Source of the DNA: an uncultured Fidelibacterota bacterium | GTDB taxonomy: Bacteria > Fidelibacterota > Marinisomatia > Marinisomatales > UBA1611 | Assembly (NCBI GenBank): GCA_902602795.1 | Contig: CACKSF010000001.1 | Coordinates: 5,601-69,600, forward strand | Length of the DNA stretch: 64,000 nucleotides | Direction: 5' to 3' | The notes under the pieces: generated by a model | Seen by the model: only the letters and a program-made list of their open reading frames with translations | What the model was told of the DNA's origin: nothing | Databases searched by the model: none | Made by a program: the position numbers and the translations under genes | Shown: positions 2,928-59,034 of the stretch, piece by piece | How the letters are laid out: every line of letters starts with the position of its first letter | How positions within the stretch are numbered: position 1 is the stretch's first letter

Positions 2928-2929
2928 TT

Positions 2930-3727: not shown

Positions 3728-3729
3728 AA

Positions 3730-5529: not shown

Positions 5530-5531
5530 TT

Positions 5532-6949: not shown

Positions 6950-6952
6950 AAT

Positions 6953-7390
6953 CTATCTTATTACTAATGTGGATAAAGATTCTGCTATTAACTTTTTATT
7001 TTGATTCAAAAATATAGATTCAAATTCTATAAACTGTAGAGTTCCATTTTTTTTGTCATACATGTCTTTAATTTTACTTTCCATTGTAATTTGGTCTCCC
7101 GCGAAAACGAGATGATGATACTTATAACTTTGGCTTGCGTGTAAAATATTTTTCATATCTATGGACAGGTCATGTAAATATTGATAAGGGTTTTTTTTCT
7201 CATGACTAACTGTAGTTAAAAATGTAAGGGGAGCAAGTAGGGAGGGGAAGCCCTTTTCTTTAGCGACATCTTCATCAAAATATACTGGGTCAGTTTGTCC
7301 AGTAGCTTTGGAAAAAAATTTCACTCTTTGTTTTTCTACATCAAAAATGATAGGCGGATAGCTTTTATTTATAAGAGATCTATTTAACAT
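6953..7390 (-). CDS. MaoC N-terminal-type dehydratase subunit (hot-dog fold partner)
   Basis: Hot-dog-like protein adjacent to the MaoC subunit (split two-subunit hydratase layout). I prefer the internal Met start (MLNRSLINK, 7390), which removes the 41-nt overlap given by the 7435 start. Confidence 0.6.
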   Translation of the reverse strand: MLNRSLINKSYPPIIFDVEKQRVKFFSKATGQTDPVYFDEDVAKEKGFPSLLAPLTFLTTVSHEKKNPYQYLHDLSIDMKNILHASQSYKYHHLVFAGDQITMESKIKDMYDKKNGTLQFIEFESIFLNQNKKLIAESLSTLVIR

Positions 7391-7394
7391 TAGA

Positions 7395-8618: not shown

Positions 8619-8648
8619 GTTCGTTAATTTTATAACATAGATTTACTT

Positions 8649-9026
8649 TTAATGTTTGAGTGTCTTTGCTATATCATTTTTTAAGGATTTTAGTTCTTTG
8701 ATTATAAAGTTTATTTCTTTTTTTTGATCTTCTAGTTGGAATAATCGATAAGAAATAGCTTCAAGAGCATTTTTTGATTGAATTTTTTGAGATGGATCTA
8801 CCTCGTATAAATCAAGATATGTCTTTATGTCTTTAAGAGAAAACCCTAATTTTTTTGCACGTAGAATAATTAATAAGCGAGCCCGGTCTTTATAATTGAA
8901 AATTCTAGTATTTCCTGCACGATTTGGCTTTACAAGGCCTTTTGACTCGTAAAATCTGATAGCCCGTTCAGTTATATCTAATTCTTTAGATAACTGTGGA
9001 ACGGTATATAAGGTATCTTTTAACAT
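8649..9026 (-). CDS. MerR-family transcriptional regulator (LiuR-like position, heading an acyl-CoA catabolic operon)
   Basis: N-terminal HTH YTVPQLSKELDITERAIRFYESKGLV plus C-terminal coiled coil. First gene of the co-directional cluster. Confidence 0.8.
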   Translation of the reverse strand: MLKDTLYTVPQLSKELDITERAIRFYESKGLVKPNRAGNTRIFNYKDRARLLIILRAKKLGFSLKDIKTYLDLYEVDPSQKIQSKNALEAISYRLFQLEDQKKEINFIIKELKSLKNDIAKTLKH

Positions 9027-9126
9027 ATTTACTCATAAGTAAAATACCTTACGTATAGGTTAGTTTCAACCTAAAGATATTTCGATTTGCTAAATATTGA
9101 AAAAAATTGGGCTGTTAAAAGTAGGG

Positions 9127-12100
9127 TCAAAAAGTTGTTGTAAATCGTAAAAGCGCGACTCTTCCAATGGATGGACCACCAATGATTTCTGTGTGTCTGT
9201 AATTCAATAAATTTGAAACGGTAAAATTTGCTTTTACAATATCATTAATTTTATATCCCAAGTGTAAATCAAGAACAGAATATGGTTGGATATTTCCAAA
9301 ATAAATTCCAGAGGACCATTTAAAACCGTCTACAAATCTTCCGTTAAGCGATGCGGTTAGTGGATATCTTCTAGGGTTGTATTGTACTTTCATTCCAGCT
9401 TTATGTCTCGGAGCATTAATTGGATCTACTGAGTTCGTAATCGGATTTAAAAATTCAGTCATGCCTAGGTAGGAATATGTTAAGTCCAGAGACCATTCCA
9501 AATTGATTAATCCTGTAAGGCTTGCATCAAATCCCCACATATTCACATTACCATAGTTTATATATCCCACAACTACAGGGGGAGTATAGCCAGGAAAAGT
9601 ATCCATAGCAGTAACACCTTCCAAACCATTTCTCCAATGGTTAAAAGATTCATCATAGTCATCGGAATCAATAATATTGTTGTTTACGATATTTTCAATT
9701 CTATTAATCGTTCCATCGTTATTGTAGTCTGTTTCCAGAACAGATTTTTCGACAACTATTGGTGTAATAAAAGTAACAGGGCTAACAAAGCTACTATAAT
9801 TACTAGTGTAAATATCAAGGGTACCAAATAATCTTTGGTTTAATCTACCTTTGTATCCAATCTCCCAAGATTTAACAATTTCAGGCCCAATTTCCGGTAA
9901 GTCTTTTACCTCCTGTCCATAAAAACCTTCAATTTTTGGATCGGTAGAAGGGTAGAAGAGGATCGAGTTTGCGGTATCAAGTGGTTCATACACCCCTTCT
10001 GTGGGTCTATAATAGTAGGGTGTCCCACTTTCATCACGAGGAAATACATACCCACCATCTGCACCCCTAGCATACACTTTAAATACAGATACTCTTGTTA
10101 CAAAAATATCTAAGAATAATGCTTGGTTTGTAGGTGTATTAAAAGCCGTTGCCCATGTAATTCTAAAATTTTGATTCTCTTTTGGTTTGTATGCAAGACC
10201 TATTTTAGGAGAGACCTGTAAACCATTTGTTTTGTCTAGGTTGAAGTTCCAGTTAAAAGGATTATATCCAGATCCGTAGTTTTGATTATTAAATTCGATA
10301 AAATTTGTTAATCGGTCATGAATATCTAACCGAGTAGCTTGGATAAGCTCGATTTTAGGATTCAGTTTCCAGTTTACTTGATAGTAAACACCGAACTCGT
10401 TCACAGTATATCGATTGTCTTCAGATGCTTCGTCAATACCTTCGTCAATATTTTCATCTACTTTCCCATCATTATCATCATCTAATCCATTCGCATAAAC
10501 AATGAAATTTTGCTCTCCGAGCCAATGCACACCAGGCTCAATAGTCTCTCCAGCGTCATATAGGCCATTGCTGTTGGAATCAACAAAGTCAGGGATACCA
10601 TTATTATTTAAGTCATTGTAGTCATCACTATCATAATCATTATCTAATTTATCTGCAATTGCTCCAAGAACAGAATCATTATAACTTGAATCATTAGGAG
10701 TACCGAATTGGGTTAAATTATCTGTATCCCATCTAGAATATCCCTCTCCATCATCATACCAAGTATTATCATTTTTATCATCAAAAACGTAGGGCGATCC
10801 GGCTTCTCCATTTCCATTGTTATCTCTTCTATCTAAAATATCTTTGTCAGATAAGATTGTCCCCCTTGTATCAGGCATAGTCAGAAAATAGTCTAAGCCC
10901 CAAACAAACCTAAAATCTCCATTTTTCCATTCATTTATATGTTGAAGTTGTGCGCTGAATTTTTTTGATCGATCGTAAATTACACTTCCAGTTGCTAGAT
11001 TCCTTGTAGGCCGATCCATATTACCAGAATAGCTTGAATTAAGATATGTTTGAAGGAAAAAGTTTTTGTATCTTGTCCTCGCTTGGTAGTAGCGATAAAC
11101 CCAGCCATCAGCTAAGTATCTAGCGATACCAGTGATATTTATATTCCTTGCCCATGCGTACCCATGAGATAAACTCATGGTTAAATCAGAATTTGGTTCC
11201 CAATCCATTCGTAGGTCATATCGATAATTGCGAACATTAAAATCTGGGAAATCATTGATTCCATCATTATTTGCATCCTTGTAAATATTCGTAAGATTAC
11301 CATATTGCATCCTAAAATCTTTCTCATCAAATTCATCCACACCAACTTCTCCCACACTGGGTGCACCATTACCATCTAAATCATTATTTTCAAACTGGTC
11401 CCATGTTTCAATGCTTACTCCATCTACGATTATAGTACTATTATTTAAGTTCTCAAAAGTCTCTCCATCCCAGACACCATTTCCTTCTCCATAGTCAGGT
11501 GCTATGTCACCTTCATCATCATAATCTCCATCCCCGTTCACATCCTCAGCTGGAATTCCATCCAGACCATAGTCTAGCAATACAGTTCCAAAAATGTAAC
11601 TTTCACCAACATCTTCATCGTAAACCCCATTTCCATTAAGATCAACAAAGGGTTCTTCTGAGACATTGTAGGCGTTCCCATAATTATCTTTATATAGTCC
11701 CCAATCATTATCATCATCTAATCCATTAGACCCCCAATTGTCATCGAAGATTCCATTGTTATTGGTATCAAATACGATTTTTCCATTAGAATCGTATGTG
11801 TAATCCCCAAAACCAAATTTGTGCCGGTCATCTACAATACTCCAATTAGAATCTGGAGTACTATAATTAGTTGTAACAGAACTTAAGTTGTCTAAATCAC
11901 TTACGACTCCAAATCTATCCAGCCAGGCACTTCCTAATTCATCTACTTCATCTATAAATCCATCTCCATCATTGTCCACTCCGTCGACCCACGCTTCTTC
12001 CTCATCATCAATTCCTATGTCAATTTGTTCATCAACGTACCCATCGCCATCATTATCTATGCCATCCGCATAATAATTTCCAATTTTTTCTTCAGTAACA

Positions 12101-42237: not shown

Positions 42238-42314
42238 GGTGGGTGTAGCTCAGCTGGTTAGAGCACCTGGTTGTGGCCCAGGAGGCCGTGGGTTCAAGTC
42301 CCATCACTCACCCA
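42238..42314 (+). tRNA. tRNA-His (GTG)
   Basis: Hand-folded cloverleaf: G-1 + GTGGGTG acceptor, anticodon arm CCTGG-TTGTGGC-CCAGG, T-arm GTGGG-TTCAAGT-CCCAT. Confidence 0.85.
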
Positions 42315-42322
42315 GATAATTT

Positions 42323-42397
42323 CGGGGTATAGCGTAGTCCGGTTAACGCGCCTGCTTTGGGAGCAGGAGATCGGGAGTTCAAATCTCTCTACCCCGA
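42323..42397 (+). tRNA. tRNA-Pro (TGG)
   Basis: Acceptor CGGGGTA/TACCCCG, anticodon arm CCTGC-TTTGGGA-GCAGG, T-arm GGGAG-TTCAAAT-CTCTC. Confidence 0.9.
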
Positions 42398-42399
42398 CA
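42355..42399 (+). repeat. attL core (inside the intact tRNA-Pro)
   Basis: CTTTGGGAGCAGGAGATCGGGAGTTCAAATCTCTCTACCCCGACA. Confidence 0.8.
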
Positions 42400-42426
42400 C
42401 TCGAGAATGCCAAATATCTCTCGACA

Positions 42427-42455
42427 AAAGCCCTGCTAGTAAGCGGGGCTTTTAC
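42427..42455 (+). terminator. rho-independent terminator after tRNA-Pro
   Basis: AAAGCCCTGC-TAGTAA-GCGGGGCTTTT hairpin plus T tract. Confidence 0.6.
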
Positions 42456-42490
42456 TTTCAATGATTATCAATCTTTATCATTAATAGCCA

Positions 42491-42520
42491 AAAACGGGAC
42501 AAAAAAAACGGGACAAAAGG
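42491..42520 (+). repeat. tandem direct repeat AAAACGGGACAAAA x2 next to attL (possible arm-type recombinase sites)
   Basis: aaaacgggacaaaa-a-aaaacgggacaaaa. The GGGACAAAAG core recurs in repeat family B. Confidence 0.5.
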
Positions 42521-42735
42521 GCACCCCGCGAGTTGGGTCCCATCTACCCATAATTCCATTGGGACTCCTACAGAGGTTATTATAATATTTTCTTTAATCA
42601 TTATTTTAGCTACATTCAAATATCATCAGGAGTGGTTTCATATTTGAAACCCACCAACCGAGCCCAGATAAATCATGGTCACGGTGGTTAGAGCCTTAAA
42701 CGCTAGATGTGCCCAGGAAAATGGGAAACATGATT

Positions 42736-42775
42736 AGCCGCCTGATGTGCGGCTTTTTTCGTTTATAGACCTACC
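42736..42775 (+). repeat. junction repeat A, diverged copy (A0)
   Basis: AGCCGC-CTGATGT-GCGGCTTTTTTCGTTTATAGACCTACC: hairpin, T tract and GTTT..TAG box in the same layout as the A family. Confidence 0.45.
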
Positions 42776-42808
42776 TAATGTGTTAACTAAAATAAAAGGA
42801 GACACATC

Positions 42809-43063
42809 ATGTCAAAAAATAAAAAACAACAATTAAAGGATATTAAGACTGAAGAATTAGATGTTAATGGTAATCCAATAGACCCTAATAGAGAATACAT
42901 TGGAAATAAAGTTAAAGTACCGATGGCATCTTTAAATTCATCTATTTATAAAACACCCACTACTATAATACTCAAAGGAAAACCAATAACGTCAGACAAA
43001 AAGAAGAAAGCAAAGTTACTTGAATTCATAAGTAGAGCCCCCATTAGTTTTGATTCAGAATAG
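42809..43063 (+). CDS. hypothetical lysine-rich protein
   Basis: ORF preceded by a strong SD (AAAGGAGA-N6-ATG). No motif recognised. Confidence 0.5.
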   Translation: MSKNKKQQLKDIKTEELDVNGNPIDPNREYIGNKVKVPMASLNSSIYKTPTTIILKGKPITSDKKKKAKLLEFISRAPISFDSE

Positions 43064-43240
43064 AGAAACTGTTGCCAGTTTATTCTTCAAGAGAACTGGC
43101 GTACCCTATCAGAACTGGATTCAGGCATGGGCAGTGACAAAACTGCAAAAACAAAAAGGAGGGGATACAAAATGTCATTGTAATAAGTCATCACGCCTTA
43201 CCAGAAAAGATGAATAGAAAACGTGATTTTGTTGTGCAAG

Positions 43241-43289
43241 AAGCCCCACATTAGTGGGGTTTTTTTTTGTGGGATGATGGGTAGATTTG
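43241..43289 (+). repeat. junction repeat A1
   Basis: AAGCCCCACATTAGTGGGGTTTTTTTTTGTGGGATGATGGGTAGATTTG. Confidence 0.85.
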
Positions 43290-43363
43290 AACTTTAAGTA
43301 TTTTTTATTTAAGTATAATTTAACTATTATTAAATAATATTTAACCAAAATAGATTATAAAAT

Positions 43364-43858
43364 ATGATTAAACATTTACTATTACTTCTATTCATTGGAT
43401 TAGCTTGGGGGCAAGAAGACTTAGTAATTAAGAAAGCTGAAAGTAGCATTAAATTGAAAAATGGTCAAAAACTAATTATCAGATATACTAATGTGGAATC
43501 AAATGTAGTCCTTATCACTGAAGGAGAGTTTAAAAGCGTTGATAACGACTTTTTGATGATTAGTACTGAAAATGTAATTGCTGAAAAAATATCTCTACCA
43601 TCAATAACAAAGATTACTGTTCCATCAAAAATTCCAGCCAATATAAGTTTTATAAAAGGCTCTTGCTCTGGGGCTGGAATTGGTTTGATATTAATTGGTA
43701 TAATGGCTTATAACGACCCACTTAATTCTATAGCTGCACCTGGTTTTGCAATGGTGGGGGCTTTTTTAGGTGGTTTAGTAAGTTATATTGCTCCAAAATT
43801 TAGGAAAACTAAAGGCTACTTAATTCAAAATGATGAGTGGAAAATAGTAAATGACTAA
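43364..43858 (+). CDS. signal-peptide protein with C-terminal glycine-zipper membrane anchor
   Basis: MIKHLLLLLFIGLAWGQ signal; C-terminus GSCSGAGIGLILIGIMAY...VGAFLGGLVSYIA. Confidence 0.6.
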   Translation: MIKHLLLLLFIGLAWGQEDLVIKKAESSIKLKNGQKLIIRYTNVESNVVLITEGEFKSVDNDFLMISTENVIAEKISLPSITKITVPSKIPANISFIKGSCSGAGIGLILIGIMAYNDPLNSIAAPGFAMVGAFLGGLVSYIAPKFRKTKGYLIQNDEWKIVND

Positions 43859-44768
43859 ATACCTTATACTATCAATATTCATTGGGTTGGCTTGGGGGCA
43901 AGATTTCAATCAGAAAGGCTACTTAAGAAATTTAGAAGCATCAATTTGCATGAGCCATTGTGGTGCATATTACCTTGAGGACGAATTAGGATATTTTCTT
44001 AATTACATATCTGATGAAAATGATTCATTAAATTTAGAATATTATTTAAATAGATTCGTAAATATTGAGGGAGATTCAATTTCTTGTACCGAATGCATTG
44101 GCATTGATGTAATAAGAATTGATATTTCAAATGATTGTGATTTACCAGTTGATTGTTTTGCTCACCCCTGTTCAACAAGTAACTGTTTTTCTCATCCAAC
44201 TGCTGAATGTATCCCAAATTATTGTGGAGGCTGTTGGTCAGACTACTACTTAGATAGTGAATTAATAGAGTGTGAAGTTCCTGAAGGATGTATTGATTTA
44301 ACAGGAGTTGATTTCGGTGAATGTGAGATGGCTCTTGGCATCGGTTGGGTTAATAATAGCTGTGAATATATTTCAGGATGCGATTGGATTGTAGACAATG
44401 TGGATTTTAGTGAAGCCTTTTTTTCTTCTATGGATAGTTGTCAACAAACCTGTATGGTTTTACATAATGATGAAGACCCTTTATTTCCTAGCCATTATTA
44501 TATCTATAATAATTATCCAAACCCATTTAATCCTTTTACTACAATAAGATACTACTTACCAGAAGATAGGTTAGTAATTATCACGGTTTATGACTTGCTT
44601 GGAAATGTCATTAAACATTTAGCTGATGAGGTTCAAAGTTCTGGTTACAAATCAATCCAATGGAATGCTACAAACAATCAAGGCCAGCCAGTATCAGCAG
44701 GAGTATATCTCTACAGCATTGAGGCGGGAGAGTTCAGACAAATTAAAAAGATGATATTATTGAAATAG
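43851..44768 (+). CDS. cysteine-rich secreted protein with T9SS sorting domain
   Basis: Signal MTKYLILSIFIGLAWGQ, more than 20 Cys, C-terminus NYPNPFNPFTTIRYYL...GVYLYSIEAGEFRQIKKMILLK. 8-nt overlap with the upstream gene. Confidence 0.75.
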   Translation: MTKYLILSIFIGLAWGQDFNQKGYLRNLEASICMSHCGAYYLEDELGYFLNYISDENDSLNLEYYLNRFVNIEGDSISCTECIGIDVIRIDISNDCDLPVDCFAHPCSTSNCFSHPTAECIPNYCGGCWSDYYLDSELIECEVPEGCIDLTGVDFGECEMALGIGWVNNSCEYISGCDWIVDNVDFSEAFFSSMDSCQQTCMVLHNDEDPLFPSHYYIYNNYPNPFNPFTTIRYYLPEDRLVIITVYDLLGNVIKHLADEVQSSGYKSIQWNATNNQGQPVSAGVYLYSIEAGEFRQIKKMILLK

Positions 44769-44786
44769 AATTAGCTATATGCATTC

Positions 44787-44836
44787 AAGCCCCGCATATG
44801 TGGGGTTTTTTGTTTGTGGGATGATGGGTATATTTA
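44787..44836 (+). repeat. junction repeat A2
   Basis: AAGCCCCGCATATGTGGGGTTTTTTGTTTGTGGGATGATGGGTATATTTA. Confidence 0.85.
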
Positions 44837-44839
44837 TGG

Positions 44840-44950
44840 ATGGGATACGGGAGAACATTAGAAGAAAAAATAATTATTGGAGTTTTTTTAATAGGGATGT
44901 TAGCTTGGTGGGCTTACAACGAATATAAGATAGATAACCCAGATGAATAA
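44840..44950 (+). CDS. possible 36-aa single-TM peptide
   Basis: MGYGRTLEEKIIIGVFLIGMLAWWAYNEYKIDNPDE. Starts 4 nt after the A2 box, and its stop overlaps the next ATG (ATGAATAA). Below the ORF-track length cutoff. Confidence 0.35.
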   Translation: MGYGRTLEEKIIIGVFLIGMLAWWAYNEYKIDNPDE

Positions 44951-45191
44951 GCACTTAACATTATTAATGTTTTTCTTTTTAGCTTTTTGGAGTTGTGCCT
45001 CAACCAGCGATGACGCATTAAGGCAACAAGAGAATTTTATAAATAATCATCCTACTTGGAAAGGTAATTCATTTAATTTTGAGAAACGAAAGCCCGAATT
45101 AAACGCTCTTGAAATAATTGAAAAAATTAATAAAGAAAAGAAAATGGACGCTAAAATAGATTCAATCATTTTAAACCAAAGCAAACAATAA
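44943..45191 (+). CDS. small putative lipoprotein
   Basis: MNKHLTLLMFFFLAFWSC signal with Cys; no other motif. Confidence 0.5.
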   Translation: MNKHLTLLMFFFLAFWSCASTSDDALRQQENFINNHPTWKGNSFNFEKRKPELNALEIIEKINKEKKMDAKIDSIILNQSKQ

Positions 45192-45196
45192 TTATT

Positions 45197-45256
45197 TAAG
45201 CTGATACGTCCAGTATAGTGTACTTCTGTCCTTTTAAGACATAAGGGACAAAAGAA
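45197..45256 (+). repeat. repeat B1
   Basis: TAAGCTGATACGTCCAGTATAGTGTACTTCTGTCCTTTTAAGACATAAGGGACAAAAGAA; ~85% identical to B2 at 53779-53839. Confidence 0.75.
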
Positions 45257-45377
45257 ATAAACGCCCCCCTATGCCACCTTCTCAAAGTAGTAGGGGTAGT
45301 ATTATATCTCAAAGATAACTTTCCCCTATAAAAAGGATTTTAAAAAACAATATTTATGGAGAAATGAAAGAAATGAT

Positions 45378-45521
45378 ATGCTAAGAAATCATTTCCAAAA
45401 GAAAGGAAAAGTCTTTTTATATACTAACGCTGAACTTAATGAATTATTATCTGATGCAGATAATAATGATGAAGATTATGATACTATAAATGGTAATGAT
45501 TGGGGTGATGATTGGGAATAA
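45378..45521 (+). CDS. possible 47-aa acidic peptide
   Basis: MLRNHFQKKGKVFLYTNAELNELLSDADNNDEDYDTINGNDWGDDWE; ORF only, no homology evidence. Confidence 0.25.
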   Translation: MLRNHFQKKGKVFLYTNAELNELLSDADNNDEDYDTINGNDWGDDWE

Positions 45522-45872
45522 TAAGATGGGTATTTAAAAATCTTAAAAGATGTATTATATATTTTTAATTAAAATGAAATTTTAACCTTTATACATATAC
45601 CCCTCCCATTATAAACCAAAACAAAGTCCATACGCTCAAAGAATGCGTTTATAGTAAGTTAAATCTGATATTTATTCTCAACTTCCCCGACCCTCTCTTC
45701 TACCTTAAAATAAAATAATATCATTTTTTTTTCTTCATCTGTGAGTTGCAAATGATATAGTGTTTAGGTTTATATTTACTAGCCCAGTCTAACAATATCA
45801 GGTTAGAAAGAAGATGGAACAAGAGATGATTAATCGCACTCGAATAGGGTGTGAATAAAAAAGGCTATAAAG

Positions 45873-46115
45873 ATGAAACTAGGCAACAATTTCCTTATAT
45901 CCATAATGGAGAGACTCGATAGAATTGAGTCATAAATAAATAATCCAAAAGCAAATTCTCGCAAATTATTATCTATTAAAGATATTATTGATTTCTCTGG
46001 AATATCTGATCCCACCATAAGACGATCAATAAAAAGAGGGACACTAAAGGCATATAAGAAAGAAGGGAAGAAGTTGTTTCGAAGAGCAGATGTAGAAAAC
46101 TGGCTCAAAGAATAA
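45873..46115 (+). pseudogene. Xis/AlpA-type helix-turn-helix (HTH_17-like) gene interrupted by an in-frame TAA
   Basis: After TAA at 45933-45935 the same frame reads INNPKANSRKLLSIKDIIDFSGISDPTIRRSIKRGTLKAYKKEGKKLFRRADVENWLKE*, an excisionase-like HTH. There is no ATG/GTG/TTG after the stop. TAATG overlap with the primase gene. Confidence 0.5.
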
Positions 46116-46345
46116 TGGACTATCAACATTTTTTTGAGAATTTAGTGGGCGTTAAAAAAATCAAATGGTCAGGCAAACAAGGCACTGGATGCTGTCTTTT
46201 GCCTGATCACGATGATAGAAATCCGTCATTCTCATTCAACATTGAGACAGGTCAAAACTTCTGTCATTCTTGTGGTTGGAAAGGCAACGCATACACACTT
46301 GCCAAAGAGCTAAATATGGACAACCCTTGCCATATACTCAAATAA
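46115..46345 (+). CDS. CHC2 zinc-finger module of a DnaG-type primase
   Basis: CLLPDHDDRNPSFSFNIETGQNFCHSCGWKGNAYTL = CxxxH...CxxC zf-CHC2. Confidence 0.7.
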   Translation: MDYQHFFENLVGVKKIKWSGKQGTGCCLLPDHDDRNPSFSFNIETGQNFCHSCGWKGNAYTLAKELNMDNPCHILK

Positions 46346-46418
46346 TTGCAAATCTATCAAGCACAAGCCTAATAACACTATTAAAAGCCATTCTAGAGAC
46401 ATAGATGAGGTAGGAATC

Positions 46419-47012
46419 ATGAAGATGTATGAAGAACTAAAAGAAAGGTACGGAAACAGGATAAAACTCGGAGATAATTACAAGGATAAATACGTCGGAA
46501 AAAGTGATAAAGATGAGGCTGTTTTCATTTATCCAAAAGGCATCAAGATTCATAAGAAGTACTGGATTAAAGAAGCATCAATAGACACTTCTAATCAAAT
46601 CTTTATGATGGATGAATTGTTAGGTTTTGATAATTCTAAGCCACTCTACTTATTTGAAGGTGAAAAGGATGCTATAGCCTCAAAATTACAAGGAGTATCA
46701 TTCTTTTGCGGTGCTACTTCTATCCCAAAAAATATAGATGCTTTGTATGAGTTTGATGAAGTCGTACTCATATACGATAATGATGAAGCAGGTGTAAATG
46801 GTGCTAAAAAGGTAGCTGAACGGATTAAATCAGAATCACCAACAACCAAAGTACTAATTGCTCAATGGGATTCATCACTTCCAAAAGGATATGATGTTTA
46901 TGATGATGGTAAAAAGACTGGATTCGCCAAGGTAGATGAAGCCATTGCAAATACAATTATATATGATTTAAAAATACCAACAGAATTAGAAGGATTTACA
47001 ATTATGACATGA
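46419..47012 (+). CDS. Toprim-domain primase module
   Basis: LYLFEGEKDAIA (catalytic Glu) and VLIYDNDEAGVNGAKK (DxD). Ends at a TGA that is in frame with the following P-loop segment. Confidence 0.7.
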   Translation: MKMYEELKERYGNRIKLGDNYKDKYVGKSDKDEAVFIYPKGIKIHKKYWIKEASIDTSNQIFMMDELLGFDNSKPLYLFEGEKDAIASKLQGVSFFCGATSIPKNIDALYEFDEVVLIYDNDEAGVNGAKKVAERIKSESPTTKVLIAQWDSSLPKGYDVYDDGKKTGFAKVDEAIANTIIYDLKIPTELEGFTIMT

Positions 47013-47974
47013 AAAAAAGCAAGTAATACCGTTCCTAAACCAACAGAATGGATAATAGAAAATGTATTGCCTAAGGGATTTAATTCGTGTCTTGCAGGAA
47101 CGACTGGAAGTAAGAAATCTATGTGGGCAATCCAATTAGGTTTGTCAGTTGCGAATGGGAAAAAGACTTTTGTGGAAACCGTATCAAAGGTGGAAGTAGA
47201 AAGGTGTTATTTATTGATACGGAGATAGGGCAAGATGAATTACTTCGCAGGTATCACAAAATAAAAAGCAAAATAGATTGGAAAGGTGATGACAATATCA
47301 TAATGATGTCTAAAGGCGGAACAACGATGGACATTTGGGAACAAACAGAAAAAATGATTCAGGCGTATAGACCCGAAGTAGTCATCATTGATAGTATGTA
47401 TAATGCCACAAGTGTTTCAGATTTCTCCAAATCAACTGGGATGAGCAAGGTAACAGATGCTCTTGCTACTCTTAAAGATAAATACGGAGTTACTATTTTA
47501 ATTATTGCTCATTTCAATAAAGGTAATGATGAACAGGTAACTCATATAGATAGGATACAAGGTTCTGCAGTTTTCAAGAACTCTATTGAATTTCAAATAT
47601 GTATGATACAGACTAACATTGATGATTTCAATATCTTCCAAGTACAAAAGACTAGAGGAGTTCCTTTTGACAGATCTTACATTGGTCTTAAGTGGGATGA
47701 TTTTTGGTTTACTACAAAAGGTATCATTGAAGATATATCTGATTACCTTGTGACTGAACATAAGAAAAAAAAGTGGACTTCTGTATTGGAAGATTTGCCT
47801 GACAGGTTTGATACAAAGGATTGGCTGAATGTTTTTAATAGCAAGTTTGAGATGTCAGAAAGAACTGGAAAAGTTTGGCTTAAAGAGGTTAGTAGAACCC
47901 AAATGGTAGATAAGATTTCTCACGGAGTTTATGAGAAGAAACTTAAACTAATTGAAGAGAATGAAATTGATTAA
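47013..47974 (+). pseudogene. RepA/DnaB-like P-loop helicase (AAA_25-like), frameshifted
   Basis: Walker A segment ..CLAGTTGSKKSMWAIQLGLSVANGKK lies in the Toprim frame (47013-~47165). The remainder (VLFIDTEIGQDELLRRY.., VVIIDSMY Walker B, IIAHFNKG) lies in the frame of ORF 47123-47974. The shift maps to the gggAAAAAg run near 47158-47163. Confidence 0.65.
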
Positions 47975-48277
47975 TTGGTGGAGAGGTGTACTTCACTATT
48001 GCACTTTCTCTCTATTTATGATTGAAAGTGAAGATAGTGAAGATAATGAAGTATAGTTCTCTACTAATTAAACAGGAGATTAATAAGATATGCTGATAAA
48101 TAGGATAGAAACAGGCGGTGATGACTAAAGGCAGAGTGGACAACCGAGATGTTTGTTGGGGGTCTAAGGAGGAAAACCACTCTACCTCATTATCAAGTCT
48201 TCTATACTGCAAGACCAAGCATCTTTTAATATTAGGCATTTTAGAGCATCCTAACATTGACACCCATCACAAGGACT

Positions 48278-48472
48278 TTATATTGATTGGGAAGAGAAGA
48301 ATTTTAGTATCAGAACAAGTGGGTCAATTTTTCCAGTCATAATCATGTATACAAAAATAGAAATAGCTATGAGGATGATAAACATGCCTAAACATCCTAT
48401 GGCGAATAGTTTACTGATTTGGTTAATGGAGTATCTAACGAACTCGAAAAATATGGAAAGCCATTTAGACAT
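48278..48472 (-). CDS. small membrane protein
   Basis: 64 aa with a hydrophobic core LFAIGCLGMFIILIAISIFVYMIM. Confidence 0.4.
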   Translation of the reverse strand: MSKWLSIFFEFVRYSINQISKLFAIGCLGMFIILIAISIFVYMIMTGKIDPLVLILKFFSSQSI

Positions 48473-48495
48473 AGGATGCCTGGATGATTAATTAC

Positions 48496-48639
48496 TTATA
48501 CATCGTATGCAAAACCAAGACCACATAAGGCTACAATAATTGCATATCTATAGCTACCGCTATCTATTGATCTTTGCAGAGTCATTCCAAATAGGATTGC
48601 AAACATGAGTATACCCATCAATCTCCATCTTGGCAACAT
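48496..48639 (-). CDS. possible 47-aa membrane peptide
   Basis: MLPRWRLMGILMFAILFGMTLQRSIDSGSYRYAIIVALCGLGFAYDV. Fills the gap between co-directional small TM genes; below the ORF-track cutoff. Confidence 0.3.
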   Translation of the reverse strand: MLPRWRLMGILMFAILFGMTLQRSIDSGSYRYAIIVALCGLGFAYDV

Positions 48640-48669
48640 CCTTCTTTTTTTTAACCAATCAATCATTAA

Positions 48670-49017
48670 TTATTGGTCTCTAAAAAGTTTAAACCCAACA
48701 ATACTAAATGTGATATTGAATATTGCTATAATACCAAGCCAATTTGTTTTTTCACCTTTTTTTGTTGGTTTACTGAAAAGTAATGGAAGCCCAACTTTGG
48801 TTCGTTCGATACCTTTTTCTTTTTTTAATTCTCCAGCCCATTTGTACCAATCTTTATCATTATCAAAATCAACATTTGACTTTTCATATTCCCAATCTAT
48901 TTCACTGGTATCCAACCATTTATGTACTGGACTAAATCCTAGTCCAAAAACAGTTATCAGGAAGACCAAAACAGAACCAGTCCCAACCATAACTAATAAT
49001 TTTTGTTTGTCATTCAT
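48670..49017 (-). CDS. two-TM membrane protein
   Basis: 115 aa with N- and C-terminal TM helices around a charged loop. Confidence 0.5.
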   Translation of the reverse strand: MNDKQKLLVMVGTGSVLVFLITVFGLGFSPVHKWLDTSEIDWEYEKSNVDFDNDKDWYKWAGELKKEKGIERTKVGLPLLFSKPTKKGEKTNWLGIIAIFNITFSIVGFKLFRDQ

Positions 49018-49025
49018 AATTAAAA

Positions 49026-49325
49026 TTAATAATTATCTTTCCTTCTTGTCAGAGTACCTATCCAGGCATGAAAGTTTTTCTTGTTCGCATCAGAATAATA
49101 ATAATAAACAGCTACCAATAATATGCTTAATGGTATCGTAAAGACTAAAAACATTAGAAGAAGTACATTCGCAATGTCTTGTTCAGATTTATTTTTAAGT
49201 AATTTTGGAATCCCTGCTTCGCCTCTTTCATATTTTCCCCAATCTTTTAAAAATTGTTTTCTTTTTACCCAACCAAGGCATAGGACTATAATAAATAAAA
49301 TGATGGTAAATGGTGATAATTCCAT
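49026..49325 (-). CDS. two-TM membrane protein
   Basis: 99 aa with TM helices FTIILFIIVLCLGWV and VLLLMFLVFTIPLSILLVAVYYYY. Confidence 0.5.
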   Translation of the reverse strand: MELSPFTIILFIIVLCLGWVKRKQFLKDWGKYERGEAGIPKLLKNKSEQDIANVLLLMFLVFTIPLSILLVAVYYYYSDANKKNFHAWIGTLTRRKDNY

Positions 49326-49385
49326 TAACTAATTTAAGATATTTAACAATAGGTTCTTGTAACACATATACTACAGGAGTAATTT

Positions 49386-49622
49386 ATGAGTATGAGTGAA
49401 GTTAATAAAGGTGGAAGACCTAGAGAAGAACCCACCAATGTACGCAGTGTTAGATTGCCCAACAGGATTTGGAAATTGGTACAAAAGGCATCGAAAGGCA
49501 GTCGTTCAGTCAATGAATATATTCAAACAATAATTGAGAATGATTTGATTAAACGGAAAATGCTAAAGAAGTCAGAACGGAAAAAACTATCCTCTAAAAC
49601 CTCTACGAAAAGGAGTCAGTAA
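49386..49622 (+). CDS. ribbon-helix-helix (CopG/Arc-like) DNA-binding protein
   Basis: GGRPREEPTNVRSVRLPNRIWKLVQKAS....SVNEYIQTIIENDL fits a beta-alpha-alpha RHH pattern. SD AGGAG is present; TAATG overlap with the integrase. Confidence 0.5.
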   Translation: MSMSEVNKGGRPREEPTNVRSVRLPNRIWKLVQKASKGSRSVNEYIQTIIENDLIKRKMLKKSERKKLSSKTSTKRSQ

Positions 49623-50734
49623 TGGCGATACTTAAAACTCGTAGAGATAAATGGTATGAAAGAGTGATATGGTTTGTAAATGGTAAGTTTATCGAAAAAC
49701 AAATACCATTAAGAACCTCATCAAAAGTAACTGCAAGAGAGAGAATTGCAGAGGTCAAAAAGGTAGAAGGAGATATTAAACAAGGGATGGAGTTTTCATT
49801 CCCTTGGCTATCCAATTTTGCAAAGACCAAAGTAAAACGGTTCACCATTAAAGAAGCAGTTGATCAATGGTTATTAAAACGGAAGGGTAAAGTTGCGAAT
49901 TCTACATTGGATTTGAATGAGGATGGTTTGAATTATTTTCTCAAGTTCATGGGCAATGCAAATCCTATCGAAACAATCTCAACAAGTAATGTGGAACAAT
50001 TCATTGATTGGTTGGAAGGAAGGGGTTTAAGCAAGGCAAGTATTAATATACATTTACGAACTATAAAATCGATGTTTAGGTATTATCTAAATGTTGGTAG
50101 ACTGACTTCAGTTCCTCATATCCAACAATTGAGGATTCCAAAAACAGAACCTATCTACATCACAGATAATGAGTTTCAATCCATAATGGAATTAGATTGG
50201 TTAGATGATTTTTACAAGCTTGTATTCCTTTTATATCGTGAGACTGGAATGAGACTAAACGAGCATATGATTTCAGTACTTGATGGAGATTGGGTTGACA
50301 TACCTAATACATCCAAAGGTAAGGTAGGAAGAAACACCCAATTAGATAGACCAATGCAATCCATCTTCAATGAATTGAAAGAATGGTTAAGCAGTGGTTA
50401 TGGTTCAAGGCTTAAGACACCTGATGACCATATCAGTAAGATGTTTAAGAAAGCCTTAAGAAGTATAGGTGCAGATGAAAGTAAACATTTCCATTCACTT
50501 CGGCATACATTTGCAGTAAGAAGATTGATACAAGGAACATAAATATATGATTTAAAATTGTTGATGGGTCATAGTTCAGTCACAACTACTGAAGTCTATT
50601 CAAATATGAATCTTAAACGAGTGTCTCAAGGTTTTCCAACCATAGTCACAAGATATGTAAATATGACTAAAATTGGAAATTTGGACACAAAAACCTTGGA
50701 CACAATAGCATTACCAATGACCTATGTGACGTAA
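49622..50734 (+). pseudogene. tyrosine recombinase/integrase with an in-frame TAA before the catalytic Tyr region
   Basis: YRETGMRLNE (Arg I) and HSLRHTFAVRRLIQGT (HxxR), then TAA at 50540-50542. The same frame continues IYDLKLLMGHSSVTTTEVYSNM (His, Tyr nucleophile) to the stop at 50732-50734. Confidence 0.8.
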
Positions 50735-50763
50735 TAAATTAGGTTACAGCTTCCAAGCGGATA

Positions 50764-50808
50764 CTTTGGGAGCAGGAGATCGGGAGTTCAAATCTTTCTA
50801 CCCCGACA
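50764..50808 (+). repeat. attR core (orphan 3' half of tRNA-Pro)
   Basis: CTTTGGGAGCAGGAGATCGGGAGTTCAAATCTTTCTACCCCGACA (one C>T difference). No 5' tRNA half precedes it. Confidence 0.8.
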
Positions 50809-50835
50809 ATGAGGCAACACACTTGTCTCTTCAGA

Positions 50836-50870
50836 AAAGCCTCGTCAAACGATGAGGCTTCTTTGTTTTC
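50836..50870 (+). terminator. terminator after the orphan tRNA-Pro 3' half
   Basis: AAAAGCCTCGTC-AAAC-GATGAGGCTTCTTTGTTTT. Confidence 0.55.
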
Positions 50871-50910
50871 ATACTTAGTAATAAATGTTCATTAATACCC
50901 GTTTGGGGGA

Positions 50911-50992
50911 CACACCCTATGGGCGTATGGCATTTTAGGAATGAACGTAAATCCTCATTCCACGCAAAGTATTTGAAAAGAAAGTCCTTGGA
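50911..50992 (+). repeat. repeat C1 (long form)
   Basis: CACACCCTATGGGCGTATGGCATTTTAGGAATGAACGTAAATCCTCATTCCACGCAAAGTATTTGAAAAGAAAGTCCTTGG; shares its core with C2-C4. Confidence 0.7.
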
Positions 50993-51035: not shown

Positions 51036-51701
51036 TTATGGTGCTTCCCAAATAATTGGATATATAGATTCACCAAAGATACCTACGCTACGAGAATAGA
51101 AGATTTTTAAATCTTTACTAGAAAAAGGATTCTTTTGAGATTCTCCGTCAAGTGTATTGCCAAAATAATTGGAGCCATACTGTTCAATCGACTTTTTGTG
51201 CCTAATTACTCTTATTGGGTGCACATCTGCTTTTAAGGCTGCTATTATGTCGGAATCTGCATCTCCGTAATATAAATCAAGCTTTAAAGAAGTCATTTTA
51301 CGGTGTTTAGTAGTATGTTTGATGCCATCTATTTTTTCATTTGGACAGAAAAATAAATTTTTATTTTTCTCTATTTTCAAATCAAGTTTTTTAGATAAAA
51401 AGCGTGCTAAAGTTTCTCCATTTTCTCCTGATCTTGCTGTTATAAAAAAAAGGTTATGTCCATTTTCTGAAAAATAGTTTATTAGCTCTACCGTTGGTTC
51501 TATAAAAACTGATAATTTTTCATCTTGTTCATTAACCCAGCTATAATCAATTGGGTTTTTTTTATTTTGAGGTATATTTTGAAAAACATCTCTAGAAAAT
51601 AATATTGTATCATCAATATCAAATCCTACATTTAATATGCCTGAACTTGCTAAAGAGAGTGATTTTATAAATGTTATTATAATTAATAGTTTTGAATACA
51701 T
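51036..51701 (-). CDS. class B acid phosphatase (AphA-like, HAD superfamily)
   Basis: Signal peptide; GFDIDDTILFS (DDDD motif I), FFITARS, YYGDADSDI, matching the AphA layout. Confidence 0.75.
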   Translation of the reverse strand: MYSKLLIIITFIKSLSLASSGILNVGFDIDDTILFSRDVFQNIPQNKKNPIDYSWVNEQDEKLSVFIEPTVELINYFSENGHNLFFITARSGENGETLARFLSKKLDLKIEKNKNLFFCPNEKIDGIKHTTKHRKMTSLKLDLYYGDADSDIIAALKADVHPIRVIRHKKSIEQYGSNYFGNTLDGESQKNPFSSKDLKIFYSRSVGIFGESIYPIIWEAP

Positions 51702-52235: not shown

Positions 52236-52760
52236 ATGCGCAAATATATATTCTTACTTTTAATTACTGGAACCGTTTGGGCACAAACGGGTTTAGATAA
52301 ATTAGTTTTTAAAAGGGGTGCTTATTATCAAGGAAAATATGCAAACACCGATAATAAAATTACATACTTATTTGAACCACAGGCAGTTTTGGATGCAAAA
52401 AAAGATGCAAAAAAATGGATAGCTTACCCACTATTAGTAGGACTTACATTCGCCTCATCAATATATGGTACTATGACGATTGCCAGAGAAGAGCCTTGGG
52501 AAAGCCTCCCAGCAATGATAGGAATTAGCACTGCTAGTTTAGCTTTACCATACATTAGTTTAAATAATTCTGATAAAAACCAAATTGAAAAACTAAGTAA
52601 GCAAGTTTATGATATTGAATTATATAAAGAAACTTTTTCGGAAGAATTCATAAAAAATAATATCATAGGTTTAGGTCTGTTAGGTTTGGCTGCTGCTGGA
52701 GGATATATTTATTTTATTTCAACTTTTACTTTGAATGATGACTTTTATTTCGGACCGTAG
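52236..52760 (+). CDS. signal-peptide protein with C-terminal multi-TM region
   Basis: MRKYIFLLLITGTVWAQ signal and three hydrophobic segments. Same architecture class as 43364-43858. Confidence 0.55.
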   Translation: MRKYIFLLLITGTVWAQTGLDKLVFKRGAYYQGKYANTDNKITYLFEPQAVLDAKKDAKKWIAYPLLVGLTFASSIYGTMTIAREEPWESLPAMIGISTASLALPYISLNNSDKNQIEKLSKQVYDIELYKETFSEEFIKNNIIGLGLLGLAAAGGYIYFISTFTLNDDFYFGP

Positions 52761-53698: not shown

Positions 53699-53778
53699 TT
53701 AATTTTAATGGTGAGTTTGTTGATACCAAGAAGATGCTATTGTTTAAATAAATATGTAAGTAAGTCTACAGGTTAGTT

Positions 53779-53839
53779 TAAGCAGGTACGTTCAGTATAA
53801 TGTCCTTCTGTCCTTTTAGTACTTGAAGGGACAAAAGAA
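53779..53839 (+). repeat. repeat B2
   Basis: TAAGCAGGTACGTTCAGTATAATGTCCTTCTGTCCTTTTAGTACTTGAAGGGACAAAAGAA. Confidence 0.75.
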
Positions 53840-53846
53840 CAACTTT

Positions 53847-56845: not shown

Positions 56846-57379
56846 CTATTTTATAAAAGAAGGATTATTTTCATCAGATTTTATCCAATCATTTACCCAT
56901 GTTGGTAATTTAGCCTTTGGGATATTAAAATTAAAAATCTTTGAGGCTTCTACAGATTTAATCAATTTACCATTTTTAACGACCCCTGTCCTTGCTAATA
57001 AAGTTGAAGTAATTTGATTTTTAACAATGAATTTATGTAGATAATATGTCCACTTATCATCTACATAAATGATTTTTGTTGTCATTTTAAATTTTTCACC
57101 AAATGGAATTCTGTAACGATACTTAATTGAAGCCCCAGCGACGGTAAAATAGATTTTATTTTTTTTTGCTGTACTAAAAAAACCCGTTCTAAAACCGTGA
57201 TTAAATCTTCCTATATCAGCTAGAGTTTGGTAGCGACCATTATTTATTTCCAAATATGGATCTATGTCTGAAATACCACATCTCATTGAAAGAGAAGTCT
57301 CATCTTCAATTTTTACTTTTTTTGTAAACCTTGATGCAAAATAAGCTTGTAATAGAATGAAAAATGGATAATTAAACAT
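56846..57379 (-). CDS. hot-dog-fold acyl-CoA thioesterase-like protein
   Basis: ..RCGISDIDPYLEINNGRYQTLADIGRFNHGFRTG..FTVAGASIKYRYRIPFGEKF resembles the 4HBT_2 thioesterase family. I prefer the Met start at 57379 to 57463. Confidence 0.55.
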   Translation of the reverse strand: MFNYPFFILLQAYFASRFTKKVKIEDETSLSMRCGISDIDPYLEINNGRYQTLADIGRFNHGFRTGFFSTAKKNKIYFTVAGASIKYRYRIPFGEKFKMTTKIIYVDDKWTYYLHKFIVKNQITSTLLARTGVVKNGKLIKSVEASKIFNFNIPKAKLPTWVNDWIKSDENNPSFIK

Positions 57380-57564
57380 TTTTTTGTTTTTGAAAATTAA
57401 TTTAAAATTTAAAGTATTTATTGATATTGGTATTAATATTACAAAAACACAAAATACTTTCATTAAATATTAAAGAAAATAAATAGTATTAATAAAATAA
57501 AAATTAAAAAGTCAATTTAGGGGAAACTAGGTATTTTATTTAAATAGAAATATCTTTGTGTATC

Positions 57565-57626: not shown

Positions 57627-59021
57627 ATGCAAAAAAACATGCCATTATTTATATTTTTTGTATTTTCCAATTATTTAATGGCTGAATGTTCAGATCTTGA
57701 TTCATTACAATGCGTCCAGTATCCTGAGTATTGTAGTTGGGATCAAAATCTTCATCAGTGTCGGGACGTTACTGTTGATACATTGGGTTTTAATTACGAT
57801 TGCATTCCATTTAATGACTTTAGCTCAATTCCTATAAATACTACTGATTACGCTGAAATGTGTATCGATTATGTTGGATTACCTCCCAGTGTTGATTGTG
57901 GAGAAGGTGTACCTATTCCTGTTTATGTTGATGGCATATCTATGAATGTTGATCAACCACAAGGAGAATGCGATCATCCAGATTTCAAGGGTGGTTGTTT
58001 CGTTGGCTCTAGAGTTGGAAGGGTGCAAGGTATAGATATTGATGGTGAGCATATGCCTGAAGTCATTTGGGTATATTTTTGTCGTTCTGCTGGTCAGGAA
58101 TATTTCAATGAATATGGCATTGTTTCTGTACAAATGATAGGATATAATACAGAAACAGGAGCAACTTGTTTTTTTGAGTCACCAGACGCTGTTGGTGATA
58201 TGATTCAGTCAGAATATTTAGAATTTGATGAAAATGGTTTATTAGATGGAGAATTGCCTGGTTATGGTAATCCTTGGTTTGATGAGGCATGGCATTCCCC
58301 GGCTGTTTCTCAAGCAAATTGTATATCTTGTCATACAAGCGACCCTTTTGTTCATGACCCTTGGATTGACCAAGCTAAATTACCAAGTGACCCTACACAA
58401 ACAGTGGTTCCTAAACTGGAATCTTCAGATTTACTATATTTTGCGGTTGGAGGATATGGAAGCCAATGGGATAACAGAAGCATACATGTTGAGGGCAATC
58501 AATGTTTGAGTTGTCACAGATCCAATATGATACTTGCTTATGAAAACTTTGAAGCTTTAGGTCATGTAATGATAAATGATTTTATGCCACCACATCAACC
58601 AGGGGCCCTTTCTGATGACTATAACGAACTTATTCAATGCTGGATTAATGGACCAGAAAATACAGATGGATGCGATTGGATAATTCCTCCGGGAGGAGAT
58701 TGTGAAACTCAGGTGCTATCTATCCAAAACGATCATATCAGAAATAATTTCTTTCTCCATCAAAATTATCCAAACCCATTTAATCCTTTTACTATTTTAC
58801 GATACGACTTACTAGAAGATGGGTTAGTAAATATCACTGTTTACGATATACTTGGCAATGTAATTAATCAGTTGGTAAATGAGGTTCAACATTCTGGCTA
58901 TAAGTCCATTCAATGGAATGCAACCAATAATCAAGGTCAGCCTGTATCTGCAGGAGTCTATTTATATACTATAGAAGCAGGAGATTTTAGACAGACCAAG
59001 AAGATGATATTGTTAAAATAG
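57627..59021 (+). CDS. secreted di-haem c-type cytochrome-like protein with T9SS sorting domain
   Basis: Signal MQKNMPLFIFFVFSNYLMA; two CxxCH motifs (NCISCHTSDPF, QCLSCHRSN). C-terminus NYPNPFNPFTILRYDL...GVYLYTIEAGDFRQTKKMILLK. Confidence 0.7.
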   Translation: MQKNMPLFIFFVFSNYLMAECSDLDSLQCVQYPEYCSWDQNLHQCRDVTVDTLGFNYDCIPFNDFSSIPINTTDYAEMCIDYVGLPPSVDCGEGVPIPVYVDGISMNVDQPQGECDHPDFKGGCFVGSRVGRVQGIDIDGEHMPEVIWVYFCRSAGQEYFNEYGIVSVQMIGYNTETGATCFFESPDAVGDMIQSEYLEFDENGLLDGELPGYGNPWFDEAWHSPAVSQANCISCHTSDPFVHDPWIDQAKLPSDPTQTVVPKLESSDLLYFAVGGYGSQWDNRSIHVEGNQCLSCHRSNMILAYENFEALGHVMINDFMPPHQPGALSDDYNELIQCWINGPENTDGCDWIIPPGGDCETQVLSIQNDHIRNNFFLHQNYPNPFNPFTILRYDLLEDGLVNITVYDILGNVINQLVNEVQHSGYKSIQWNATNNQGQPVSAGVYLYTIEAGDFRQTKKMILLK

Positions 59022-59034
59022 AAATATTTTAAAC

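Follow-up and report, generated by a model that had tools for sequence, protein, structure and literature searches.

Tycheposons are tRNA-targeting elements of about 10 kb that have been reported from Prochlorococcus and other marine bacteria (Hackl et al., bioRxiv 10.1101/2020.12.28.424599). We analyzed a 64-kb stretch of contig CACKSF010000001.1 (the whole stretch is called the window here) from the Marinimicrobia (SAR406), in which a segment with the genes of an integrative element, at 42400-50763, lies between a complete tRNA-Pro and a partial copy of it. With a probability of roughly 0.85, this segment is an immobilised copy of a family of tRNA-targeting integrative elements, at a site built by serial integration. 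SAR406 bacteria are abundant in the ocean interior and are known almost only from fragmented metagenome-assembled genomes (MAGs). The window spans in full one of the points at which the contigs of its relatives break, a tRNA-seeded island headed by an apparently dead element; our literature search found no description of such elements in Marinimicrobia.

The element shares with tycheposons, as the consulted passages of the preprint describe them, a tyrosine recombinase, an excisionase, a primase/helicase module and cargo, a match by gene type only. Full and partial tRNA flanks, tandem integrations that push older material into an island, decayed remnants whose integrases are fragmented, and an exchange of genes between cargo and island are further likenesses to those passages. 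The hosts that they name are cyanobacteria and Alpha-, Gamma- and Deltaproteobacteria, not Marinimicrobia (10.1101/2020.12.28.424599). The definition given there has an inward-facing integrase, whereas the integrase of the window and those of four relatives (L006, L007, L021 and L022) face outward and read into the right attachment site (attR). Modules like the recurring cassette junction described below (D1) were not found in the preprint passages searched. The definition also places the integrase in a tyrosine recombinase clade specific to tycheposons. As the integrase here does not face inward, we call the element tycheposon-like and not a tycheposon. The idea of tandem accretion at the tRNA is, in the same passages, the already published tycheposon model (10.1101/2020.12.28.424599); our results indicate that island building of this style also operates in Marinimicrobia, through a distinct family with an outward-facing integrase.

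Two other systems are close. P4-like satellites, integrase-primase islands and phage-inducible chromosomal islands (PICIs) also have a helix-turn-helix (HTH) gene of the AlpA/Xis type, a primase-helicase, a tyrosine integrase, integration at a tRNA end and a variable cargo or defence slot, and the relatives described here carry restriction-modification, Mrr- and ResIII-type genes. Unlike them, the window's element has no capsid-redirecting, packaging or helper-interaction genes in Pfam and PHROG searches, and it has no close relative in 2.9 million viral contigs, in which integrase, helicase, exact attachment-core and alignment-based scans returned only phage integrases of 22-28% identity. Integrons resemble it in their one-directional arrays of small cassettes, a recurring hairpin-containing site and an adjoining tyrosine recombinase gene. 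In contrast to integrons, the integrase is not IntI (56 and 46 bits with the NCBIfam integron-integrase models, against cut-offs of 265 and 435), it lies at the far end of the element and would act on a tRNA site, and the recurring site consists of a terminator, a T run and a promoter-like box without resemblance to the attachment core.

tRNAs were called with ARAGORN and Rfam, and protein domains with Pfam, PHROG and NCBIfam. Relative contigs are given L-numbers: L007 comes from the deposited assembly GCA_902606675.1, L006 is a TARA scaffold and L032 is a 1.07-Mb contig. The core gene adjoining the tRNAs encodes an LptF/G-like permease with 67-93% identity to homologues in MAGs of Marinimicrobia (SAR406, Ca. 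Neomarinimicrobiota) and related metagenome contigs; a look-up of its exact sequence gave no match. Twelve close-relative LptF contigs were compared (L001-L004 and L008-L015), among which L008 is the closest relative genome (93% protein identity in the permease). The attachment (att) sites and their surroundings are as follows; the element segment is the DNA between the two core copies.

42239-42313: tRNA-His, just upstream of tRNA-Pro (ARAGORN and Rfam)
42323-42398, + strand: complete tRNA-Pro(TGG), the integration target (ARAGORN; Rfam RF00005, 69.4 bits)
42355-42399, + strand: attL core, the 45-nt 3' part of tRNA-Pro from the anticodon loop to the 3' end
42400-42560, + strand: left arm P'(a), comprising a spacer, a hairpin terminator (~42425-42452), AT-rich DNA and a direct pair of CGGGACAAAA repeats
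42495-42504 and 42509-42518, + strand: the CGGGACAAAA repeats in P'(a)
50681-50706, + strand: right arm P, two direct TTGGACACA repeats, 15 nt apart, within the integrase 3' end (peptide LDTKTLDT)
50764-50808, + strand: attR core, a tRNA-Pro 3' fragment with one mismatch at 50786
50809-50987, + strand: post-attR flank P'(b), with a terminator (50837-50860), one remaining GGGGGACAC repeat (~50905) and a D7 module (50950-50987)

The core copies are 8409 nt apart, and a complete tRNA is present at one end only. Neither ARAGORN nor Rfam called a tRNA at about 50.7 kb, and the second 45-mer is therefore a 3' fragment; its mismatch is a C to T change in the 3' strand of the T stem, which weakens the stem. 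A 34-nt sub-pattern of the core, with up to three mismatches, occurred at two places in the window only (expectation 0 in 100 shuffles), and a local-alignment scan of both strands revealed no third core copy in the window. The terminator hairpins that follow the two copies are homologous yet diverged; the core repeat (family D5) extends loosely to 85 nt with 79% identity, and the flanks are loosely similar across about 175 nt.

In every relative case, the core has two direct GGnACA repeats on each side, 14-15 nt apart. The left pair lies about 100 nt past the core, beyond a terminator, and the right pair is inside the integrase 3' end. Within the 64 kb, GGGACA[AC]A occurs seven times (two in the attL flank) and GGACACA five times (three flanking attR). 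P'(a) is 74% identical to the flank that follows the integrase in L022, and it aligns with other tRNA flanks. From their position and conservation, the GGnACA repeats are probably arm-type binding sites for the N-terminal domain of the integrase. As the right-arm repeat falls in coding DNA, it appears in the protein as a peptide, xDTxxxDT, that is conserved in all relatives (alignment columns ~395-410); given the repeat and this peptide, a DNA-level constraint seems to be written into the integrase C-terminus.

Between the arms, downstream of the cargo, lies a mobility backbone in the order xis, primase-helicase, four small membrane open reading frames (ORFs), an Arc-like gene and a tyrosine integrase.

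45873-46113, + strand: xis pseudogene, an HTH_17 excisionase (Pfam HTH_17, E = 8.7e-11; PHROG excisionase family), with an in-frame TAA at 45933-45935
46115-47974, + strand: primase-helicase pseudogene with zf-CHC2, Toprim and AAA_25 domains (Pfam)
48278-49325, - strand: four small hydrophobic ORFs of 64, 56, 115 and 99 aa (no PHROG hits)
49386-49622, + strand: Arc/ribbon-helix-helix (RHH)-like gene of 78 aa, its end overlapping the integrase start (PHROG 6506 Arc-like repressor, E = 3e-4)
49622-50737, + strand: tyrosine integrase pseudogene, outward-facing toward attR (Pfam Phage_integrase plus SAM-like domains)

In L023 and L024 an intact xis of 83 aa is colinear with that of the window, in which the stop aligns to a Leu. 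In relatives the primase-helicase is a single ORF of 620-630 aa (~624), the best of them (P0121) with 84% identity at 100% coverage, and in the window it is split over three frames (tblastn). Compared with the DNA of L023, it has a 20-nt deletion after 46332, a GGA to TGA change at 47010-47012 and a 1-nt deletion after 47158. The integrase reading frame stops at 50737, 26 nt before the attR core, and a TAA codon in frame at 50540-50542 interrupts it; six of the seven relatives aligned have a Ser at this position. This stop lies between the HxLRH box and the GH...Y end, with the second His box and the catalytic Tyr beyond it; R, HxLRH, GH and Y, the conserved positions, can be aligned with their counterparts in intact relatives. 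By profile the integrase is "Xer-like", under all NCBIfam cut-offs, and an archaeal XerC-like protein is its top match in the PDB (E = 1.6e-10). The Arc/RHH-like gene gave no hit in the Pfam search, and a 76-aa gene occupies its position in L006, L017 and the P0040 contig. These lesions indicate that the element is dead, its backbone inactivated and its cargo retained, and it is predicted to be unable to excise.

Much of this anatomy had been read from the DNA in an original prediction of an integrative element in tRNA-Pro, and it is borne out: the segment has all the parts expected of site-specific insertion into the 3' portion of tRNA-Pro. ARAGORN, Rfam and repeat scans confirmed its 45-nt repeat with one mismatch and no 5' half, and the related but diverged terminators, as well as four small membrane-protein genes on the opposite strand (48278-49325), are present; a second complete tRNA gene around the second 45-mer, which it named as an outcome that would speak against insertion, was not called. 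The integrase lies 26 nt from the repeat and not 30 nt as given there. The Xis-like HTH_17, zf-CHC2, Toprim, AAA_25 helicase and Phage_integrase assignments held with Pfam, and the RHH gene is weakly supported (PHROG E = 3e-4). The prediction missed the decay of the element, that is, five inactivating lesions in xis, the primase-helicase and the integrase.

A search of public genome and metagenome proteins gave 650 matches to the integrase family (intact length ~370 aa, up to 90% identity) and 165 relatives of the primase-helicase, both mostly from marine metagenomes. The element family is common in marine Marinimicrobia (SAR406). Contigs repeatedly showed the same layout, with cargo, HTH_17, one or more replication genes, a 76-aa gene, integrase and a tRNA fragment, and relatives share partial tRNA-Pro or tRNA-Arg repeats together with paired GGnACA repeats flanking the core. 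L007 has both att sites and apparently intact called genes: a 71-nt repeat of tRNA-Arg(CCG) with 89% identity recurs 10.5 kb apart, the integrase ends 25 nt before attR and arm repeats are found on both sides. Its cargo, between attL and xis, includes a 652-aa protein of the type IX secretion system (T9SS) and a Mrr/ResIII helicase, a T9SS protein being adjacent to attL. In L006 and L021 the integrase is followed by a tRNA-Pro fragment, in L022 by a tRNA-Arg fragment, and a flank of the left-arm type comes after each. Other relatives have restriction-modification genes in their cargo, and DUF5681 is found in some relatives only. L023 is a sister element whose backbone is about 90% identical in nucleotide sequence to that of the window and whose cargo and left arm are entirely different. 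In the more distant L017 (5447-6632; also L018-L020; 58% identity), the 3' end of the integrase gene overlaps tRNA-Arg(TCT), which is complete there and not a fragment; the identity segment or the att geometry there probably differs from the window type.

The proposed sequence of events is as follows. The attP of a circular element would consist of the right arm in the integrase 3' end, a 45-nt copy of the tRNA-Pro 3' end and a left arm with its terminator, each arm bearing two direct GGnACA repeats. The tyrosine integrase of the element would recombine attP with the chromosomal tRNA-Pro, at a crossover position that we infer, and recombination would rebuild a complete tRNA from element DNA while moving the former 3' end, with its flank, downstream by 8.4 kb. 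The inserted element would read left arm, cargo slot, xis, primase-helicase, small membrane ORFs, Arc-like gene, integrase, right arm. Its cargo slot would hold a unit with a riboswitch for S-adenosylmethionine (SAM) and secreted-protein cassettes, each ending in a 50-nt terminator-promoter-like module; that the element itself delivered this particular cargo is presumed. After integration, five mutations would have knocked out three mobility genes, so that the cargo would now be fixed in the island. The island downstream would have been built at least partly by serial integrations at tRNA-Pro.

The cargo slot (42.4-45.9 kb) contains the following features.

42618-42741, + strand: SAM-I/IV riboswitch aptamer, the first cargo unit (Rfam RF01725, 49.5 bits against a gathering score of 41.1)
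42736-42762, + strand: riboswitch terminator
42809-43063, + strand: cargo ORF of 84 aa downstream of the riboswitch, with its own ribosome-binding site and no Pfam hit
43238-43290, + strand: D1 copy 1, with the hairpin GCCCCAC-ATTA-GTGGGGT, a T run and then TTTGTGGGATGATGGGTAGATTTG
43364-43858, + strand: cargo gene of 164 aa, with a signal peptide matching that of the 305-aa gene
43851-44768, + strand: secreted protein of 305 aa with a T9SS C-terminal sorting domain (Pfam Por_Secre_tail and FlgD_ig)
44785-44837, + strand: D1 copy 2
44943-45191, + strand: cargo ORF of 82 aa
45195-45260, + strand: D8 intergenic module, which recurs at 53777-53842 (76%) and in L021 at 5215-5274 (87%)

A metabolite riboswitch is an unusual cargo for a mobile element; the 84-aa ORF behind it has 21 representative homologues among 1.84 billion proteins. 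The hairpin of D8, GTCC...GGGAC, includes the arm-like word GGGACAAAA.

The most unusual feature of the locus is the portable junction module, D1. Its consensus, about 50 nt long, is AAGCCCCACATTCGTGGGG-TTTTTTG-TTTGTGGGATGATGGGTAGATTTGG, and it comprises a 7-bp terminator hairpin, a T run that supplies TTTG, and a perfect TAnnTTTG box; one copy has a compensatory CCCCGC/GCGGGG change in the hairpin. The window has 11 copies between 43.2 and 61.4 kb, all on the + strand. Two are in the element, at 43238 and 44785, and nine at 52.1-61.4 kb, as expected from the earlier claim that junction repeats occur inside the element and continue beyond attR. None was found at 1-42 kb of the window or in about 107 kb of core-side DNA of relatives. 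In relatives, D1 occurs in L006 (4222), L007 (18432), L017 (445 and 6693), L021 (6122, 8511 and 9444), L022 (2977, 4234 and 5395) and L023 (301), and over the set L006, L007 and L017-L023 it is always on the integrase strand and lies in cargo slots and beyond attR. In the DNA sampled, D1 is thus restricted to elements and islands. It is 88-96% identical among contigs with unrelated flanking genes, with sharp limits of homology.

The TAnnTTTG box matches the -33/-7 promoter pattern of Bacteroidetes (PMC7366714). We assume from their membership in the Fibrobacteres-Chlorobi-Bacteroidetes (FCB) group that Marinimicrobia use promoters of this type, and D1 would then be an intrinsic terminator joined to a Bacteroidetes-type promoter-like unit. 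An ATG is found 4-8 nt past the box in many copies, which suggests very short or absent leaders, and each D1 cassette appears to be self-expressed. A sigma-70 promoter scan was uninformative here (103 sites against 102 expected). A second module, D7 (CATTCCnCnCAAAGTAnTnnAAAGAAAGTC), is found behind several left arms and can stand in for the hairpin part of D1. The copies of D7 far inside the island were tried as footprints of old left arms and rejected, as D7 there simply takes the place of the hairpin in a D1-type junction. For finding such islands and for testing their expression or mobility, the att core, the arm repeats and this portable 50-nt module provide handles.

Evidence that the site was used more than once comes from the DNA on the far side of attR. 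Window positions 50762-50986 are 89% identical to L023 49-288 (240 nt), where both arm repeats are retained and the window has lost one. L023 runs from a partial tRNA-Pro core through the left arm, D7 and D1 modules and two cargo genes to the backbone. The sequence displaced by the window's element was thus probably the left arm of a sister element, and since the displaced flank is of element type, the site would have been used earlier. Tandem accretion at the tRNA, which the original prediction had raised as one of two options, is supported directly by L006. There, positions 1-11809 form a tandem array in which a first backbone (primase-helicase to integrase), a tRNA-Pro fragment, a left arm with D1 and a gene for a 1275-aa DEAD/ResIII helicase are followed by a second backbone, with HTH_17 and DUF5681, that ends in a second integrase of the same family.

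The genes beyond attR also behave as island genes. In the more distant SAR406 contig L032 (1400-15200), homologues of the acid phosphatase (51036-51701 in the window) and the thioesterase (56846-57463) lie downstream of FolD and tRNA-Arg(CCG), arranged and oriented relative to the tRNA as they are in the window, and a 58-nt remnant of the Arc-like gene is near them. Because these homologues sit on tRNA-Arg(CCG) in L032, the window DNA downstream of attR would be island material and not fixed core. The same island genes thus hang on different tRNAs in different SAR406 lineages. The product of a 174-aa island gene (52236-52760) is 40% identical to that of a cargo gene of L017 and L018; D1 follows each, and the next genes differ. 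It appears that elements of the family routinely carry D1 cassettes, and that cargo and island share one gene pool. A supposed integrase/helicase remnant at 60.8-61.2 kb was discarded, its matches being weak, in or beside an adenylate cyclase gene, and not significant.

How the cassettes came to lie at 42.4-45.9 kb can be read in another way, which is possible though the less probable course: exchange with the downstream island, by homologous recombination or gene conversion, would have brought them in once the element was integrated, the junction modules serving as portable homology. In support of such an entry, the stretch 44494-44773, which holds the T9SS C-terminal domain and its D1, is 79% identical in nucleotide sequence to the island at 58747-59026 (family D2), and D8 is 76% identical to the copy at 53777. 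The conservation of D1 at 88-96% between unrelated flanks is the pattern expected of exchange at modules, and the sister L023 has a 90% identical backbone, yet a different cargo and left arm. Against it, identities of just 76-79% to the island argue against recent conversion, and cassettes with junction modules are found in L007 between attL and xis, in L023 directly behind its left arm and, ahead of the backbone, in L022 and L017. The original prediction had proposed to check whether intact relatives have such repeats beside their att site, and these relatives have the modules beside the left arm or in the cargo slot. As relatives with their own att sites hold D1 cassettes in the equivalent slot, their carriage appears normal for the family.

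The segment could instead be a composite of two serial integrations, in which the left arm and cargo (42.4-45.86 kb) come from one element and the backbone (45.86-50.76 kb) from another, the middle fragment having been deleted or eroded. This we hold to be unlikely. Tandem arrays do exist in the family (L006), left arms and backbones occur in differing combinations (this backbone is joined to P'(b) in L023 and to P'(a) in the window), and there are about 600 nt of nearly non-coding DNA between D8 and xis. No third core or second integrase trace was found at 45.2-45.9 kb, however, and the order of left arm, cargo, xis, replication genes and integrase matches that of L007, in which both att sites are present and the genes are apparently intact.

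A wider reading of the modules, which we put forward as a long shot, is that D1 (with its D7 variant) is the exchange site of a SAR406 cassette system that swaps self-expressed cassettes between tRNA-targeting elements and islands. It would explain why the modules are 88-96% identical across hosts whose integrases are just 58-79% identical, and, if true, it would amount to integron-like gene shuffling without an integron integrase.

We consider it very improbable that the element is still functional, its stops and frameshifts having arisen in the assembly or being overcome by readthrough or recoding. One of the stops is a TGA aligned to a Gly, and the helicase part is 96% identical in protein sequence to an intact relative (tblastn), which implies that any decay is recent. 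Five independent lesions of four kinds nevertheless fall in 3.3 kb, namely stops in xis, primase-helicase and integrase together with the 20-nt and 1-nt deletions. In the 42 kb of core genes upstream no ORF is broken, and the cargo ORFs are also open. We take the lesions as real and sequencing error as unlikely because these 42 kb are unbroken and because one lesion is a 20-nt deletion. Stop-codon recoding was dropped as an explanation: the three stops replace Leu, Gly and Ser, with no consistent recoding, and two frameshifts are present in addition.

The tRNA locus itself is poorly preserved in assemblies of relatives. Only two of the 12 close-relative LptF contigs (L002 and L014) extend more than about 35 nt past tRNA-Pro, reaching 1.0-1.5 kb, and they show other flanks of the left-arm type and then unrelated secreted-protein genes. 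Four contigs, among them L001, L003 and L008, stop at tRNA-Pro or shortly beyond it; the other six stop in tRNA-His (L012 and L015) or before the tRNA pair. Breaks at the tRNA pair are the effect that a population-variable locus would have on short-read assemblies, which suggests that the tRNA-His/tRNA-Pro locus is hypervariable in natural populations. In L008 a complete tRNA-Pro is followed by 33 nt identical to the flank of L023, of P'(b) and not P'(a) type, at which point the contig ends; this junction is the one expected in a genome without the window's insertion. Of the empty tRNA-Pro site that the original prediction proposed to look for, this junction of 33 nt was seen, and no long empty-site contig. 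The other outcome named there as speaking against insertion, an ancestral segment with no empty site in related genomes, did not appear. A search for the empty site through the acid phosphatase gene did not find it, as the closest contig ends 21 nt past the gene; in more distant genomes this gene sits in a tRNA-Arg(CCG) island instead.

It is scarcely credible that nothing was inserted, with the second 45-mer left over from a local duplication around the tRNA and the interval ancestral. The missing full empty site and the homology of both flanks over about 175 nt would suit it. Set against them are the end of an integrase gene of a tRNA-targeting family 26 nt away from the fragment, arm repeats to either side, equivalent arrangements with other tRNAs in relatives, the joining of tRNA-Pro to the distal flank in L008, and contigs of relatives that mostly break at or before the tRNA pair.

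Several points weigh against an immobilised element at a serially used site. The alternative junction in L008 is 33 nt at a contig end, and among genome and metagenome contigs no circular attP junction and no long empty-site contig was found. The 13 kb downstream of attR contain no older attR core or second integrase remnant; if this DNA came from earlier elements, their backbones are gone. The cargo and island stretches that are 76-79% identical (D2 and D8) fit later recombination as well as delivery. Arm-type repeats are present at every tRNA flank examined, including those of L002 and L014 with no integrase within 1-1.5 kb, and they could therefore be native to these tRNA loci and not footprints of earlier elements. 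With no close relative in the viral contigs, nothing points to packaging or to present-day mobility of the family.

The backbone of the window's element also differs from that of its sister in one place. The small ORFs of 115 and 99 aa (48670-49325) have no counterpart in L023, in which window positions 48666-49330 are unmatched, and the stretch between the helicase and the Arc-like gene is probably a second variable slot.

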